The translations under genes and the position numbers were made by a program. Shown piece by piece: positions 1,840 to 61,037 of a stretch of 64,000 nt of DNA. The DNA lies in the NCBI GenBank assembly GCA_030603885.1, contig JAUVWW010000004.1, positions 2,236-66,235 on the forward strand, written 5' to 3'. The notes beneath the pieces were generated by a model that was not told the origin of the DNA, searched no databases, and saw nothing but the letters and a program-made list of their open reading frames with translations. The stretch is from a bacterium. GTDB taxonomy: Bacteria > Patescibacteriota > JABMPQ01 > JAUVWW01. How positions within the stretch are numbered: position 1 is the stretch's first letter; each line of letters starts with the position of its first letter.

Positions 1840-4035
1840 ATGTTTGCAGTACATAAACTTACCAAAATCAGAAAAAGAGATGGGAGGATAGTTGAGTTTG
1901 TTCAGAAGAAGATCGCTAATGCTATTTACAAAGCCATGGTGGAAGTAAAGAAGCCAAACCAGCGTCTGGCTCGGAGACTTTCTGATAAAGTAGTTACTTT
2001 ACTCGAAGAACGGCTAGCTAAAGATCAAATTCCAACTGTGGAAGAAGTCCAGGATATTGTAGAAGAAGCACTAATGAAGTCAGGACAGGTGGATGTGGCT
2101 CGAGCCTATATTGTTTATCGACAGAAGCATAAGGAAATCCGAGAGCTAAAAAAGAAAGTGCTCGAAGCAGAAAAGGAGTTTAAGCCAACCCCTGGAGCCT
2201 TAACTGTTCTTCAAAAAAGATATTTGAGGAAAGGAGTCAAGGGAGAAATTCTAGAGACTCCTACCCAGATGTTTAAGAGAGTAGCTCATAACATAGCTCA
2301 TGCTGATAATCTCTATAAGACCTTGTACCATCCAGAAATAGATGTGGAGAAAATCATCAAAGAATTTTATCGCATGATGGCTAATCTAGAGTTCCTTCCC
2401 AATTCTCCTACATTGATGAATGCGGGAAAAGAATTGCAGCAATTATCTGCTTGTTTTGTTCTCCCTGTTTCTGATTCTATTGAAGGAATTTTTGAAACTA
2501 TAAAAAATACAGCTATCATTCACCAATCAGGTGGTGGCACCGGATTTTCCTTTTCTCGACTCCGTCCCAAGGGAGATATTGTAAAATCAACAGGAGGAAT
2601 TGCCTCGGGACCAGTTTCTTTTATGAAAGTATTTAATGCGGCTACCGAGGCGATTAAACAGGGGGGCACGCGTCGGGGGGCCAATATGGCTATCCTACGT
2701 TGTGACCATCCAGACATTCTAGAGTTTATTACCTGCAAAGAAGAAGAAGGACAGCTAAATAATTTCAATATCTCTGTAGCTATGACTGATCGATTTATGC
2801 AAGCTTTGAAAAATGATACAGATTACGAATTGATCAGTCCCAGAACTAATGAAGCAGTGGGTAAGCTTTCTGCCAGAAAAGTATGGTCGCTAATATGCAT
2901 GATGACTTGGAAGAACGGAGATCCAGGAGCAGTATTTATAGATGTTATAAATAAAGATAACCCTACGCCGCATGTTGGAGAAATTGAGTCCACAAATCCA
3001 TGCGGCGAGCAACCTCTTTTACCCAACGAAAGTTGTAACCTTGGTTCTATCAATCTTTCCAAGATGGTAAAAACTAAAGGCAAAAAGGCAGAGATTGATT
3101 GGGATAGGCTGAAAAAGACCACATATACTGCTGTTCATTTTCTGGATAATGTTATTGATATGTGTAGATACCCTCTGTTAGAGATAGAGGAAATGGTGAC
3201 AGTCAATCGAAAGATCGGTCTGGGAGTAATGGGTTTTGCAGATATGTTAATCCAGCTTGGGATCCCCTATAGTTCAAAGAAAGCTTTAGCTTTAGGAGAG
3301 AAAGTGATGAAGTTTATTACAGAAGAGGGAAGAAAAGCATCAGTTGAGCTAGCAAAGATTAGAGGAGTCTTTCCTAATTTTGTAGATTCGGTTTGGGACA
3401 AGAAGGGGCTCAGAGTAAGGAATTCTACCATAACCACTATTGCTCCCACAGGTACTATTAGTATTATTGCAGGTTGTTCATCAGGTGTTGAGCCTCTATT
3501 TGCCATCTCGTTTATTAGACGCAATATTTTAGGAGGTGAGGCAGAAATTGTGGAAGTAAATCCTTTCTTTGAAAAGATAGCCCGTGAGCGAAAGTTTTAC
3601 TCAAAAGATTTAATGAGAGAGGTGGCAGAAAAAGGAAGTATTCAAAAAATAGAAAAGATTCCAGAGGATGTAAGAAAGCTATTTGTTACTGCTCTGGATA
3701 TTCCTTATGATATTCATGTCAAAATGCAAGCCGCCTGGCAGCGGTATACCGACAATGCCGTAAGCAAAACCATAAATATGCCTTATGAATCCACTGCCGA
3801 GGATGTAGAGAAAGCATATAAGTTAGCTTATGATTTAGGCTGTAAAGGGATAACCATTTATCGTTATGGATCACGCCAAGCCCAAGTCCTTTATTATGGA
3901 GGAAAAGAAAAAAGAAAATTGGAAAGAGGAGGACCTCAAAAATTAGAAAAATGTCCAGAATGTGGGGCTGATTTGACTTTTGAGGATGGATGCGCCGTGT
4001 GTAAGAATTGTGGCTATTCTTATTGTAAAGTCTAA
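1840..4035 (+). CDS. nrdJ: Class II adenosylcobalamin-dependent ribonucleotide reductase NrdJ, with an N-terminal ATP-cone and a C-terminal Cys4 zinc ribbon
   Basis: 731 aa. ATP-cone-like N-terminus ([21 protein letters not shown]). The RNR catalytic core carries the NPCGEQPL active-site Cys motif and a glycine-rich loop. C-terminus is CPECG...CKNCG. Confidence 0.85.
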
Positions 4036-4047
4036 CTTATTAAACAT

Positions 4048-4572
4048 ATGAAAAAATCTTTAGGTATGGTCGAGGTTTTGACTGGCAATGGTCCAGGCAA
4101 GACTACTGCTGCTTTAGGCCATGCTCTTCGAAGTATTGGACATGGGCTAACCGTGGCCATGGTTCAGTTTATGAAGATAGACTCAAGATACGGAGAGATT
4201 AAGGCAATTAAAGAATATTTGCCTCGATCTCGTGTTTTTCAATTTGGAAGGAAAAAATTTGTTAGGGAGCCAGCTAAAATAGATTTCAAGCTAGCAGAGA
4301 AGGGACTAGCTAAAGCTCAGGAGATAATTCAAAGTAGAAAATATGATTTAGTTATTTTAGATGAGATAAATGTGGCTTTGTGGTTTAAACTTTTAGATTT
4401 AGAAGAGGTGTGTGAGATGATTAAGTCTCGGCCAAAAAATGCAGAGCTAGTCTTAACTGGTCGTTATGCTCCAAAGAAAATAATTGATCTTGCAGACTCT
4501 GTATCAGAGATAAAAGAAGTTAAGCATTATTTTAGAAAAGGGGTGCGAGCCAGAAAGGGAATTGAGTATTAG
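4048..4572 (+). CDS. cobA: Cob(I)alamin/cob(I)yrinic acid a,c-diamide adenosyltransferase (CobA/BtuR family)
   Basis: P-loop TGNGPGKTTAALG and a C-terminal DLADSVSEIKEVKHYFRKGVRARKGIEY, both colinear with E. coli BtuR. Only 12 nt downstream of nrdJ, so likely co-transcribed. The true start may be 4066 (MVEVL). Confidence 0.85.
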   Translation: MKKSLGMVEVLTGNGPGKTTAALGHALRSIGHGLTVAMVQFMKIDSRYGEIKAIKEYLPRSRVFQFGRKKFVREPAKIDFKLAEKGLAKAQEIIQSRKYDLVILDEINVALWFKLLDLEEVCEMIKSRPKNAELVLTGRYAPKKIIDLADSVSEIKEVKHYFRKGVRARKGIEY

Positions 4573-4696
4573 ATTAGCTGTGGATAAGTTACTATTTACT
4601 TGGATTTGAATATTTGATATATTCTATATACACTCTTTTTGAAATTTAGTATAAGCATAGCCCCCGCACTTTTTAGAAAGTGCGGGAGAGAAGAGA

Positions 4697-4862
4697 TAGG
4701 GGAAGAGAGGTAACCTGCCTGCTCAGTAGGCAGGGATTCCTCCGCTGTCCCGCAGCCGTTAAAGCCGGACTACCTATCCTATGCTTTGAGTTTTGACTGC
4801 CTCGAGGAAGGTAGAAAATAGACTTGGTCGATCTATTTTCCTTCTTTGAGAAGGAATTTTTT
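4697..4862 (+). promoter_or_regulatory. Candidate cobalamin riboswitch, with an aptamer and an intrinsic-terminator expression platform
   Basis: A GC-rich island in AT-rich DNA. GGCAGGGAUUCCUCCGCUGUCCCGCAGCCGUUAAAGCCGG (4729-4768) aligns with the conserved cobalamin-riboswitch core CCGGUGAAAAUCCGGGGCUGCCCCCGCAACUGUAAGCGG. Downstream, GACUGCC...GGAAGG (4796-4811) resembles the B12-box region. A terminator hairpin ttccttc/gaaggaa followed by TTTTTT lies at 4838-4862, just before the lipoprotein ATG at 4881. Confidence 0.5.
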
Positions 4863-4880
4863 ATTAATTTAAGAAAAATC

Positions 4881-5324
4881 ATGAAAAAACTAAAGATCCT
4901 AGGCTTACTTATTGTAGCAGTTTTAGTACTTACTGGTGCTGGTTGTCAATGGTTTACCAAGCCAGAAGAAGAAGTCTCCGAAGTTACTACTCCTCAAGTA
5001 GCAGAAGAAAAAGTTGAAGAAAAAGCCACTCTGGTCATTGATGACGGAACTGGAAGCCCTCAGAGTTTTGATCTGACTGTAAAAGAAGGAACAACTGCCT
5101 TCGATTTACTAAAAGAAGCCACAGGACAAGCTGGTTTGAAATTAGATTACTCTGAATCTGATTTTGGAGTAATGATTGATGCTATGGGGGATAAGAAAGG
5201 TGGACAGGAAGATAAATATTGGCTATTCTATGTTAATGAAGAGATGGCACTGGTAGCTGCTGATAAGCAAGAAGTGAAAGTAGGGGATAAAGTGGAGTTT
5301 AAGTTTGAAGCATCAGCCTTTTAA
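4881..5324 (+). CDS. Secreted lipoprotein with a transcobalamin-like (DUF4430-type) domain; putative cobalamin-binding/capture protein
   Basis: Signal peptide plus lipobox (LVLTGAGC). The body, LTVKEGTTAFDLL...KYWLFYVNEEMALVAADKQEVKVGDKVEFKF, matches the DUF4430 pattern (TV.daL ... YWmyyVNg ... l.dGD.v.f.y). The ORF-track start at 4824 is an upstream extension that runs through the terminator and is rejected. Confidence 0.5.
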   Translation: MKKLKILGLLIVAVLVLTGAGCQWFTKPEEEVSEVTTPQVAEEKVEEKATLVIDDGTGSPQSFDLTVKEGTTAFDLLKEATGQAGLKLDYSESDFGVMIDAMGDKKGGQEDKYWLFYVNEEMALVAADKQEVKVGDKVEFKFEASAF

Positions 5325-5353
5325 GTTTAAAGTTAAAAATCCAAGGTCAAAAT

Positions 5354-5932
5354 ATGTCTAGAATAATTCTATCTAAAAAAGGTAGACAATTTGAGATATG
5401 GCTGACTTTTCTATTTGTAGCTGGAGCAGCAGCCCTAAGACTTCTTCCTCATCCGCCCAATTTTGCTCCTATTGCTGCCATAGCTTTGTTTGGAGGAGTC
5501 TACTTGAGCAGGAAGTTTGCTTTGGGAATTCCTATCCTAGCCATGTTGGTCAGTGATATTTTTATTGGGTTTTATAAACCAGTGGTAATGGCCTCTGTCT
5601 ATGGAAGTTTTGTTTTGTGTGGACTTATAGGTCTTTGGTTGAAAAAACATAAAAAAGCAGGTACAATAATAGGAAGTTCTCTTTTGTGTTCTGTTTTGTT
5701 CTTTATTATTACTAACTTTGCTGTTTGGGCTTTTACCCCCTGGTATACGAAAACTCTAGCCGGTCTAGTCCAGTGCTATGTGTTAGCCTTACCATTTTTC
5801 AGAAATACTTTATTGGGAGATATATTTTATGTCGGAGTTTTCTTTGGAGTTTATGAGTTGGTCAGAGTATGGATTAGTAAAAAATATCAACTAAAGGCAA
5901 TATCAGTAAGTAAAGGCGGATTAAATCGATAA
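5354..5932 (+). CDS. Small polytopic membrane protein (5-6 TM), possible ECF-type S-component / vitamin transporter
   Basis: 192 aa and strongly hydrophobic, with an LPHPPNFAPIAAIALFGG motif. The size and topology fit an ECF substrate-capture component. Its position after the B12 riboswitch and lipoprotein suggests cobalamin uptake, but this is inference. Confidence 0.4.
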   Translation: MSRIILSKKGRQFEIWLTFLFVAGAAALRLLPHPPNFAPIAAIALFGGVYLSRKFALGIPILAMLVSDIFIGFYKPVVMASVYGSFVLCGLIGLWLKKHKKAGTIIGSSLLCSVLFFIITNFAVWAFTPWYTKTLAGLVQCYVLALPFFRNTLLGDIFYVGVFFGVYELVRVWISKKYQLKAISVSKGGLNR

Positions 5933-5934
5933 CC

Positions 5935-6483
5935 ATGTTGATTGGTTTAACTGGGACAAATGGTGCTGGTAAGGGCGAGGTAGCTAAGTATTTAAGGGAA
6001 AAAGGATTCAATTACTTTTCTTTATCTGATATTCTAAGGGAGGAATTAAATAAGAAAAGTCTGGAGCTTTCTAGAAAAAATCTACAGAATATTGGTAACC
6101 AATTACGGAAGAAATTTGGACCTGGGATTTTAGCTGAAAGAACAATTAAGAAAATCAAAGACAAGAGTATTATTGACAGTATTAGAAATCCTGAGGAGAT
6201 AAGAAAGCTGAGAGAATTCGCCAAAAAGTCTGGAACTGTTTTCTTTCTCTTGTCAGTTGATGCACCGATCAAACTGAGATTTGAAAGACTTAAAGAGAGA
6301 AGGACGATTGAGTCAGCAGAAACACTAGAAGAATTTAAAAAAAGAGAGCAGTTTGAGATGGGCAAAGAAATCCATTGGCAACAAATTGACACCTGTATGA
6401 AGATGGCAGATTATACTATAATCAATGATGGAACGTTAGAAAAGTTATATAAAAAAATTAATAAGATTTTAAAAGAGATATGA
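5935..6483 (+). CDS. P-loop nucleoside/nucleotide kinase-like protein (dephospho-CoA-kinase / dNMP-kinase-like fold)
   Basis: Walker A GLTGTNGAGKG at the N-terminus, about 180 aa. Overlaps the dCMP deaminase start (ATGA). Confidence 0.45.
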   Translation: MLIGLTGTNGAGKGEVAKYLREKGFNYFSLSDILREELNKKSLELSRKNLQNIGNQLRKKFGPGILAERTIKKIKDKSIIDSIRNPEEIRKLREFAKKSGTVFFLLSVDAPIKLRFERLKERRTIESAETLEEFKKREQFEMGKEIHWQQIDTCMKMADYTIINDGTLEKLYKKINKILKEI

Positions 6484-7031
6484 AAAACAAACGTCCCTCG
6501 AAAGATCAATACTATTTAAATATTGCTAAGGAAATTGCTCGAAGATGTACTTGTTATAGGACCAATATAGGGGCTATTATTGTTCGGGATGATCAGATTA
6601 TTGCCACTGGCTACGTGGGAGCTCCTCGTAAGACAAAGGACTGTTTTGAGCATGGTTTTTGTCTGCGCACCAGATTGAAGATCCCTCATGGTCATAGGTA
6701 TGAACTTTGTCGAAGTATTCATTCGGAAATGAATGCTATTATCAATGCTGCTAGAGCTGGGGTGAGTCTTTTAGGTGGTAATATGTATATCTATGGAGAG
6801 CTGATGCCTAAAGGTAGAATCATGGACGCTACTCCTTGCTTTATCTGTAAGAAAATGATTATCAATGCTGGATTAAATCAAGTCATTGTATCAACTGCCA
6901 AAGGTAAAACGAAAAGACATAAAGTGTCTGATTGGATAAAAGATTGGAGAAAGAAAGACATTCTCGATGATAAACATCAGTATGGTGATGGCGTGAAGGT
7001 TTATTCTGAAAAAGCACTAAAAGAAAAATAA
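6480..7031 (+). CDS. dCMP deaminase (cytidine/deoxycytidylate deaminase zinc-binding family)
   Basis: HSEMNAI zinc-ligand motif plus PCFICKKMIINAG (PCxxC). Confidence 0.75.
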   Translation: MKNKRPSKDQYYLNIAKEIARRCTCYRTNIGAIIVRDDQIIATGYVGAPRKTKDCFEHGFCLRTRLKIPHGHRYELCRSIHSEMNAIINAARAGVSLLGGNMYIYGELMPKGRIMDATPCFICKKMIINAGLNQVIVSTAKGKTKRHKVSDWIKDWRKKDILDDKHQYGDGVKVYSEKALKEK

Positions 7032-13272: not shown

Positions 13273-13347
13273 CGGGGCGTAGCTTAGTTGGCTTAAAGCA
13301 CAGGGCTGGGGGTCCTGGGATCGCTGGTTCGAATCCAGTCGCCCCGA
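13273..13347 (+). tRNA. tRNA-Pro (anticodon GGG), no encoded CCA
   Basis: Acceptor stem CGGGGCG/CGCCCCG with discriminator A. D-arm GCTT-AGTTGGCTTA-AAGC. Anticodon loop CTGGGGG. T-arm GGTTCGAATCC. Confidence 0.8.
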
Positions 13348-60654: not shown

Positions 60655-61037
60655 TGAGCCCAAGTGGACTAGATGATCGCCCCCGCGTAATGGGGGGAGG
60701 AAAGTCCGAACACCCTTTGTTCTTCATGGCAAACCATTAGCGAACAAAGAAGTGGGTGCTGGGTAATTCCCAGCGGTCCTGCAGTAATGTAGGGTTAGGG
60801 AAAGTGCCACAGAGACTATACTAGCTTATAGCTCGTAGCTTTAGGCAAAAGGTGAAAAGTATGAGGATGTATCTCGAGATGCTACCTCGTTTCCTCCCGG
60901 GTGACTGGGATGGATGGCAAACCCCACCTGGTGCAAGACCAAACAATGGTTGGTTGCTTGACCCCTCAAGTAATCGAGGGGCTAGATAGATGATCATCTG
61001 AAAAAACAGAATTCGGCTTATGGTCCACTTGGGCCCT
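60655..61037 (+). ncRNA. rnpB: RNase P RNA (bacterial type), not in the ORF track
   Basis: P1 pairing gcccaagtggac (60658-60669) with gtccacttgggc (61023-61034). Conserved GGAAAGTCCG (60698-60707), AGGGAAAGTGCCACAGAG (~60798-60815), and ACAGAATTCGGCTTATGGTC near the 3' end, which matches E. coli ACAGAACCCGGCUUAUCGGUC. The region is a GC-rich island. Confidence 0.8.

Follow-up and report, generated by a model that had tools for sequence, protein, structure and literature searches.

Between a corrinoid adenosyltransferase gene (cobA/btuR) and an operon for a DUF4430 lipoprotein and a DUF6580 membrane protein, just downstream of nrdJ, the 64,000-nt stretch of DNA analysed here (the window) carries a leader which raises the question of whether it is a cobalamin riboswitch and, if so, of which kind. 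A preliminary description had proposed such a riboswitch at 4697–4862, with an intrinsic terminator as expression platform and a GGAAGG/CCUUC antiterminator; covariation and folding support this core claim. Positions 4653–4862 (+ strand) very probably form a cobalamin riboswitch with a terminator platform, which most likely represses the DUF4430/DUF6580 operon, a probable B12 uptake operon. This assignment is based on (i) sequence and structure homology, (ii) covariation of helices and of a kissing loop and (iii) a thermodynamic two-state platform; ligand binding, the identity of the corrinoid and real termination at the window element are inferred. The 3′ end of the proposed element was retained but its 5′ start was displaced, the aptamer beginning with P1 at 4653. 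The leader had also been seen as a GC-rich island, and G+C is indeed 0.53–0.55 across 4650–4799 versus 0.27–0.40 in the flanks. The fold of 4655–4885 (z = −4.5) was better than those of 200 out of 200 dinucleotide shuffles, and none of 200 such shuffles was better than the fold of 4648–4792 (z = −4.4).

Genomic context

The genes and signals that surround the leader are the following:

1840–4035, upstream of the leader: NrdJ, AdoCbl-dependent ribonucleotide reductase, 731 aa
4048–4572, upstream of the leader: CobA/BtuR corrinoid adenosyltransferase
4579–4590, + strand: motif TGTGGATAAGTT right after the cobA stop codon, the same in the window, L081, L208, L209 and L210
4595–4623, + strand: promoter-like site, TTTACT, 17-nt spacer, TG-TATATT (extended −10); consensus scan, region conserved in orthologues
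4881–5324, + strand: first gene of the putatively regulated operon, DUF4430 lipoprotein with a transcobalamin-C-terminal-like domain (Pfam PF14478, E = 5e-14)
5354–5932, + strand: second gene of this operon, DUF6580 membrane protein with an ECF S-component fold (Pfam PF20221, E = 1.7e-54)

The promoter-like site, called purely by its match to the consensus, would start the leader transcript ~25–30 nt before P1 and suggests that the leader has a start of its own. The 12-nt motif TGTGGATAAGTT is kept while the spacer around it diverges (the L084 version, TGTGGATAAATT, has one substitution); it could be an operator or an UP-like element of the leader promoter.

Transcobalamins have DUF4430 as their C-terminal domain (PMC4350170), and the DUF4430 gene of L. 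rhamnosus neighbours rtpR, the gene of a B12-dependent reductase (PMC9963975). A phmmer search with the DUF4430 protein against PDB sequences gave no match. The DUF6580 profile weakly matches CbrT (6FNP_A), the B12-specific S-component of ECF-CbrT (E = 0.002), and with the AlphaFold model of DUF6580 (pLDDT 82.7) Foldseek found RibU, FolT, ThiT, PanT and CbrT (TM 0.5–0.6; probability ~1 for the top matches and 0.35 for CbrT). The close relatives of DUF6580 number ~4,500 (E ≤ 1e-10), those whose source is named being Patescibacteria; a literature search on DUF6580 found no papers. DUF4430 and DUF6580, two uncharacterised families, are probably a B12 capture/uptake system of Patescibacteria, and the riboswitch linkage ties both to B12 uptake.

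Several other features of this region were noticed. DUF6580 is followed by genes for a kinase-like AAA_17/18 protein and a dCMP deaminase (5935–7031), with 2-nt spacing or 4-nt overlap, and the AAA_17/18-dCMP deaminase order is conserved in L081, L084 and L086; these genes of deoxynucleotide metabolism may be co-transcribed under the B12 riboswitch. The nrdJ orthologue in L208 (L208:1-1629, 1124 aa) contains an intein with LAGLIDADG homing-endonuclease domains that is absent from the window nrdJ. Between DUF4430 and DUF6580, L086 has a 257-nt GC-rich near-palindromic insert (L086:636-892; MFE −107 kcal/mol, z = −7.0), which matched no Rfam family and may be a miniature inverted-repeat element; the window equivalent is a 29-nt spacer alone (5325–5353). 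In L209 (L209:279-354) and L211 (L211:1-96), the riboswitch terminator is separated from the DUF4430 start codon by an extra segment of ~80 nt that has a hairpin of its own, GGUCGAGCAAGCUCGAC; this segment is absent from the window.

Detection by Rfam models

When the whole window was searched at gathering thresholds, Rfam returned no cobalamin match, the sole matches being an RNase P RNA and one tRNA. The former (60661–61035) is a bacterial RNase P RNA class A of 166 bits with long insertions versus the consensus; the tRNA, also a gathering-level match, is at 13273–13347. In a permissive local search, AdoCbl-II (RF01689) was the best family (4683–4783, 28.7 bits, E = 9e-5; gathering 36.5), and its match to the window was full length, with a 26-nt insertion in the P4 hairpin. 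The other two Rfam families of the cobalamin clan (CL00101) score the window lower. Since it is thus below gathering in all three cobalamin models, the window riboswitch is missed by standard annotation.

The outcome of these searches follows the presence of a hairpin insertion in L4: all four clade members that have it stay below threshold (window 28.7, L081 28.7, L084 30.7 and L210 27.7 bits), and the 3 of 3 without it pass, L208 with RF00174 (42.2 bits versus 31.5) and L209 and L086 with RF01689 (40.1 and 39.8 bits versus 36.5). L4 insertions and mixed peripheral elements go along with the false negatives seen in candidate-phyla genomes. According to the preliminary description, the proposal would fall if a cmsearch score below threshold were combined with a lack of covariation in homologous leaders. 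The score is indeed too low (28.7 versus 36.5 bits), but covariation was found, and with the window sub-threshold in Rfam it is this comparative evidence that is decisive.

Relatives and covariation

The sample for related leaders consisted of 80 genome loci encoding DUF6580, some of which bear Rfam-significant cobalamin riboswitches upstream. In the close syntenic loci L081, L084 and L085 the leader is 95% identical to that of the window, and diverged orthologues of it are found in L086, L208, L209 and L210. An nhmmer search of the 80 loci with the window leader matched L019 and L045 weakly and no others, which indicates that a sequence-only search is too insensitive. Our own covariance model (R1), covering P3–P6 and P13, matched 48 times upstream of DUF6580 operons, each time on the coding strand, with exactly one match in the window. 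A metagenome scan for the window-type L5/P6 core, in which L13 was left free, yielded 120 further loci, of which 45 match R1. Some loci have two same-strand cobalamin matches within 1–2 kb (L048:3839-3941 and 4487-4580; L065:3469-3567 and 5180-5278; L148:3507-3616 and 5625-5716), possibly tandem riboswitches or separate control of adjacent transcription units.

In the alignment of 43 sequences, 94.6% of cells were paired, versus 70.8% in shuffled controls and at most 51% when partners were slid; both sides change in 17 out of 24 pairs, among them all of P3 and P13. Covariation backs P3, P4, P5, P6, P13 and the L5–L13 kissing loop. Alignments derived from a covariance model are biased towards the modelled structure, and the kissing loop lies outside the model. 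At the positions equivalent to C4749 (L5) and G4807 (L13), a G-C pair was found in 28 sequences and a C-G pair in 15, and none of the 43 was unpaired. A tally over all hits, made without selection, agrees: L5 = G is accompanied by L13 = C in 26 of 29 cases, and where L5 is C, the L13 base is G in all 8 genome loci and in 23 out of 31 from metagenomes, most of the remainder being mis-picked loops. The proposed kissing pairs are C4749-G4807, C4750-G4806, C4751-G4804 (with A4805 bulged) and G4752-C4803, and they join the aptamer to the platform, as is characteristic of clan CL00101. L5 of the window, UCCCG, equals the reported consensus, and the CCCG/CG(A)GG pairing with a bulged A resembles the bulged kissing loops of env8 and others (PMC10327014).

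The clade alignment comprises six sequences, three of them near-identical. In it, MAFFT put P2, P3 and P4 out of structural register, most of which was mended by a realignment based on the covariance model; P2 of L210 was still one column off, and every P2 was therefore also folded individually. Altogether, the search for covariation in homologous leaders that had been called for yielded compensatory changes in P2, P3, P4, P6, P13 and the kissing loop.

Architecture of the aptamer

The predicted elements of the aptamer, all on the + strand, are:

4653–4660, +: P1 5′ strand AAGCAUAG, pairs with 4779–4786 (MFE and centroid fold; all 6 clade members; RF00174 in L208)
4663–4686, +: P2 arm, perfect 10-bp hairpin CCCGCACUUU/AAAGUGCGGG with loop UUAG (−16.7 kcal/mol)
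4687–4694, +: purine-rich strand AGAGAAGA joining P2 and P3, in L2B / J2-3 position (unpaired in the folds; A/G-rich in all clade members)
4695–4700, +: P3 5′ strand GAUAGG, pairs with 4773–4778 (covariance-model alignment; 5 of 5 counted P3 pairs change on both sides in alignment A8)
4701–4706, +: J3/4 core GGAAGA, family consensus GGGAA (Rfam alignment; conserved in A8)
4707–4742, +: P4 with inserted hairpin; P4a GAGG/CCUC (4707–4710/4739–4742), internal loop UAA...GAUU (covariation)
4714–4722 with 4726–4734, +: P4b CCUGCCUGC/GUAGGCAGG (pairing kept in L210 and L019)
4745–4755, +: P5 and L5 (UCCCG, 4748–4752), kissing-loop donor (L5 consensus; C4749/G4807 covary)
4756–4768, +: P6 (CCG/CGG) with 7-nt L6 UUAAAGC, P7–P11 extension absent (Rfam alignment; survey of L6 length)
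4769–4778, +: J6/3 (ACUA) and P3 3′ strand CCUAUC, with 4762–4768 the B12-box region (Rfam alignment; covariation)
4779–4786, +: P1 3′ strand CUAUGCUU, pairs with 4653–4660 (folds and RF00174 alignment of L208)

The segment GGCAGGGAUUCCUCCGCUGUCCCGCAGCCGUUAAAGCCGG, singled out earlier as resembling the T. tengcongensis core, is found at 4729–4768, where it makes up the 3′ side of P4 as well as P5/L5 and P6/L6. The RF01689 alignment and covariation reveal a four-way junction P3-P4-P5-P6 with a conserved core, which is what unites clan CL00101. The middle pair of P6 covaries (UA 21, GC 12, CG 9), and every clade member has a 7-nt L6, UUAAAGC. The B12-box/J6-3 region proper is at ~4762–4778. The tract GACUGCC...GGAAGG, previously taken for the B12 box, is instead P13/L13 and the antiterminator strand, and the B12-box reading was dropped.

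Both the MFE and the centroid fold of 4648–4792 hold P1, P2, P3 and an extended P4, and each of the six clade members, when folded unconstrained, has P1 enclosing P2. The RF00174 alignment of L208 has the same P1 and P2, with ~70 model positions of the P6 extension (P7–P11) deleted. Within the clade, 5 out of the 10 pairs of P2 change on both sides. P1 is invariant at 7 of 8 pairs in the six sequences and for this reason covariation speaks neither for nor against this helix. The perfect 10-bp hairpin at 4663–4686 is present as described, although not in the role of cobA terminator or P1-like stem then suggested: it is the P2 arm inside the true P1. The terminator reading was dropped because a U-run after the hairpin is absent on both strands, a conserved promoter-like site lies upstream and P1 encloses the hairpin in all orthologues. 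A P1 according to Rfam RF01689 (CGGGAG/CCUAUG) was also rejected, as it has 2 mismatches in 6 and a 5′ strand lying within the P2 3′ arm.

When set against the known classes, the element takes features from two of them. It has the P2 loop-stem-loop module that Cbl-I riboswitches carry between P1 and P3 (the position of P2 fits the L2A-P2-L2B module of Cbl-I/yvrC; PMC7367189) but not their long P6 extension (P7–P11); it has the short P6 ending in a loop of Cbl-IIa but not the bulged J1/3 without P2, a 10-bp hairpin and an 8-nt purine strand intervening there. The combination of a Cbl-I-like P2 arm, a Cbl-II-like 7-nt L6 and an L4 hairpin makes this a hybrid architecture. P1 enclosing P2 together with a short L6 was seen in the window clade alone among all relatives surveyed, and the R2 search of 100 metagenome loci with window-type L5 did not find close relatives of the hybrid outside the clade; weak full-length R2 matches occur in metagenome loci such as L126 and L174 (31–33 bits).

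L4 forms a T-loop that is docked by L6 in solved structures (PMC7367189), and the 21-nt hairpin of the window interrupts L4 at the exact place of this docking. Both helices of the interrupted arm covary: P4a is GAGG/CCUC, CCGG/CCGG or CUGG/CCAG, and P4b is CCUGCCUGC/GUAGGCAGG in the window, UCCGC/GCGGA in L210 and CCUGCC/GGCGGG in L019. The 3 + 4-nt L4 flanks (UGA/UAA...AAUU/GAUU) are conserved across independent lineages, and those of the window (UAA...GAUU) equal in number the canonical 7-nt loop (UGUAAAU in L086 and L208). About one quarter of the related riboswitches have L4 insertions. Hairpins of 17–49 nt were observed in this place upstream of DUF6580 operons (L019:1007-1032, L010, L006, L005, L021, L016, L043 and L045), in riboswitches both with and without P6 extensions, and in the 3 lineages examined closely (window/L084, L210, L019) the insertion falls between the third and fourth L4 nucleotides. 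AGGCAG in the P4b 3′ arm could also pair with CUGCCU in the P13 5′ arm as an extra switch, but this was rejected as a coincidence, the pairing being lost in L081 (CUACCU) and in L210 (different P4b).

Expression platform

The platform comprises the following predicted elements:

4797–4814, +: P13 (CUGCCU/AGGUAG), L13 CGAGGA at 4803–4808 (6 of 6 P13 pairs change on both sides)
4801–4850, +: antiterminator CUCGAGGAAGG (4801–4811) / CCUUCUUUGAG (4840–4850), 11 bp around the spacer hairpin (unconstrained MFE)
4815–4839, +: spacer hairpin AAAAUAGA/UCUAUUUU, which brings the antiterminator strands together (in L086, L019, L008, L208 and L210)
4838–4862, +: intrinsic terminator UUCCUUC-UUUGA-GAAGGAA and U6 (consensus scan; forms if L13 is blocked; conserved in orthologues)

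The terminator recognized at the outset, a UUCCUUC/GAAGGAA stem (4838–4856) followed by U6, was recovered independently by the consensus scan; the start codon is at 4881, 18 nt past the U-run. In ViennaRNA folding, the antiterminator is the platform MFE in the window, L084, L086, L019 and L008, and blocking L13 leads to P13, the spacer hairpin and the terminator. For the window, the nearest-neighbour prediction gives −22.1 kcal/mol for the antiterminator and −19.5 kcal/mol for P13 with the terminator, a small gap of 2.6 kcal/mol. The two-state platform is found in 5 orthologues from 3 lineages despite their differing sequences, and the spacer hairpin likewise varies in sequence and loop size among L086, L019, L008, L208 and L210.

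In the mechanism that we propose, binding of a corrinoid would let L5 (UCCCG) kiss L13 (CGAGGA) and so lock P13; the downstream strand would then be free to form the UUCCUUC/GAAGGAA terminator, which would end transcription 18 nt short of the start codon. In the ligand-free state, L13 and the P13 3′ side, CUCGAGGAAGG, would pair with the terminator 5′ arm and loop, CCUUCUUUGAG, and the resulting 11-bp antiterminator across the spacer hairpin would allow the operon to be transcribed. P13 and the terminator are mutually compatible, and ligand binding should therefore repress. For uptake genes, repression is expected when B12 is plentiful.

Alternative explanations

The leader could contain a real cobalamin aptamer that acts chiefly on translation or in a dual manner, E. 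coli btuB and env8 being precedents, with little role for the U-run hairpin as a terminator. Such an arrangement is suggested by L019 and L008, where the AGGAGA of the terminator 3′ arm also serves as a Shine-Dalgarno sequence, ~10 nt away from the AUG, and by the many relatives in which L13/P13 overlap an AGGA tract beside the start codon. We consider it unlikely for the window, where the AUG follows the terminator 3′ arm at a distance of 24 nt and nothing SD-like is sequestered; moreover, the stem and U6 are kept in every clade member and folding reproduces the antiterminator/terminator alternation. The sense of the switch could also be reversed, with P13 itself acting as the antiterminator of an activating (ON) riboswitch like A. 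halodurans cobT. Though activating corrinoid riboswitches exist (PMC10327014), this reading is extremely improbable here: P13 and the terminator share no nucleotides and can coexist, and the terminator 5′ arm has L13 and the P13 3′ side as its pairing partners, so that a locked P13 favours termination. An ON switch would also run against the logic expected of uptake genes, namely their repression at plentiful B12.

It is very unlikely, and less probable than translational control, that the element is a degenerate, ligand-blind relic, in which sensing ended when L4 gained its insertion and the P6 extension was lost, so that a constitutive attenuator or a structured leader was left. The window does score below the Rfam gathering thresholds and its L4 is broken exactly where L6 docks in solved structures (PMC7367189), but core, kissing loop and platform are conserved with compensatory changes in a clade that differs at many other positions, P4b covaries and the 3 + 4-nt L4 flanks are conserved in independent lineages. 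L4 insertions are also present in relatives that pass Rfam, e.g. L019 (41.6 bits). A repressing cobalamin riboswitch acting through the terminator is thus retained as the preferred reading.

Implications

The features described above might define a distinct cobalamin riboswitch subclass of Patescibacteria, with a P2 buttress, an L4 helix, AdoCbl as ligand and a two-part uptake system; this joint reading is tentative and, taken as a whole, rather doubtful. According to it, (i) the P2 arm and not a P6 extension may buttress the ligand pocket, by analogy with B. subtilis yvrC, (ii) L4 may tolerate or exploit an inserted helix, (iii) in spite of the class-II-like core, the ligand may be AdoCbl, which the neighbouring CobA would make for the neighbouring NrdJ (with cobA and nrdJ next to the leader, AdoCbl is the natural candidate) and (iv) the DUF4430 surface lipoprotein may hand the corrinoid to DUF6580 as an S-component-like permease. 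If this is true, the DUF4430/DUF6580 system may be the main route of B12 entry in auxotrophic ultra-small bacteria. The window riboswitch adds a second natural Cbl-I/Cbl-II hybrid (P2 arm without P6 extension), which bears on how peripheral elements set the selectivity for adenosyl- versus methyl-/hydroxo-cobalamin. It is also relevant to cofactor acquisition by B12-auxotrophic Patescibacteria that depend on NrdJ.

Comparison with known systems

In gene content, the locus resembles the nrdJ-cbrS-cbrT-pduO cluster of L. delbrueckii (ECF-CbrT, PDB 6FNP; PMC5997447), which likewise combines an AdoCbl-dependent ribonucleotide reductase, a corrinoid adenosyltransferase and an S-component-type membrane protein. 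The window adenosyltransferase is, however, of the CobA/BtuR type and not of the PduO type, DUF6580 is a separate Pfam family and an ECF module was not identified.

Among riboswitches, the best-scoring family for the window, RF01689 (AdoCbl-II; env8HyCbl, PDB 4FRN), shares with it the P3–P6 junction, the GGGAA J3/4, a short P6 capped by 7 nt and an L5-L13 kissing loop in which one L13 base is bulged. Unlike in this family, P1 and P3 of the window element are separated by a P2 arm and not by a bulged J1/3, L4 bears an additional hairpin, and the platform is a terminator in place of RBS sequestration. RF00174 (Cbl-I; T. tengcongensis, PDB 4GMA) shares P1 around a P2 module, the core junction and the kissing loop, but the window is without the P7–P11 extension of P6, which supports the adenosyl pocket of Cbl-I riboswitches (PMC7367189). 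B. subtilis yvrC (btuF; Chan et al. 2020, PMC7367189) has, like the window, a P2 arm and no long P6 extension, and its P2 arm can stand in for the P6 extension in the adenosyl pocket. The window conforms to this hybrid type, defined by a P2 arm and only a small P6 extension; compared by description, yvrC has a small P6 hairpin where the window, without any P6 hairpin, has a bare loop, and the L4 hairpin belongs to the window only.

For the platform, the counterpart is that of P. megaterium metE, a repressing riboswitch whose P13/antiterminator/terminator switch was demonstrated by compensatory mutagenesis (PMC10327014). The sequences differ, and in the window L13 (CGAG) joins the antiterminator and a conserved spacer hairpin lies inside it. 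The logic of the predicted window platform is nevertheless that of metE: the kissing loop stabilizes P13, the 3′ side of P13 has the terminator 5′ side as its alternative partner, and the antiterminator is the more stable of the two states.
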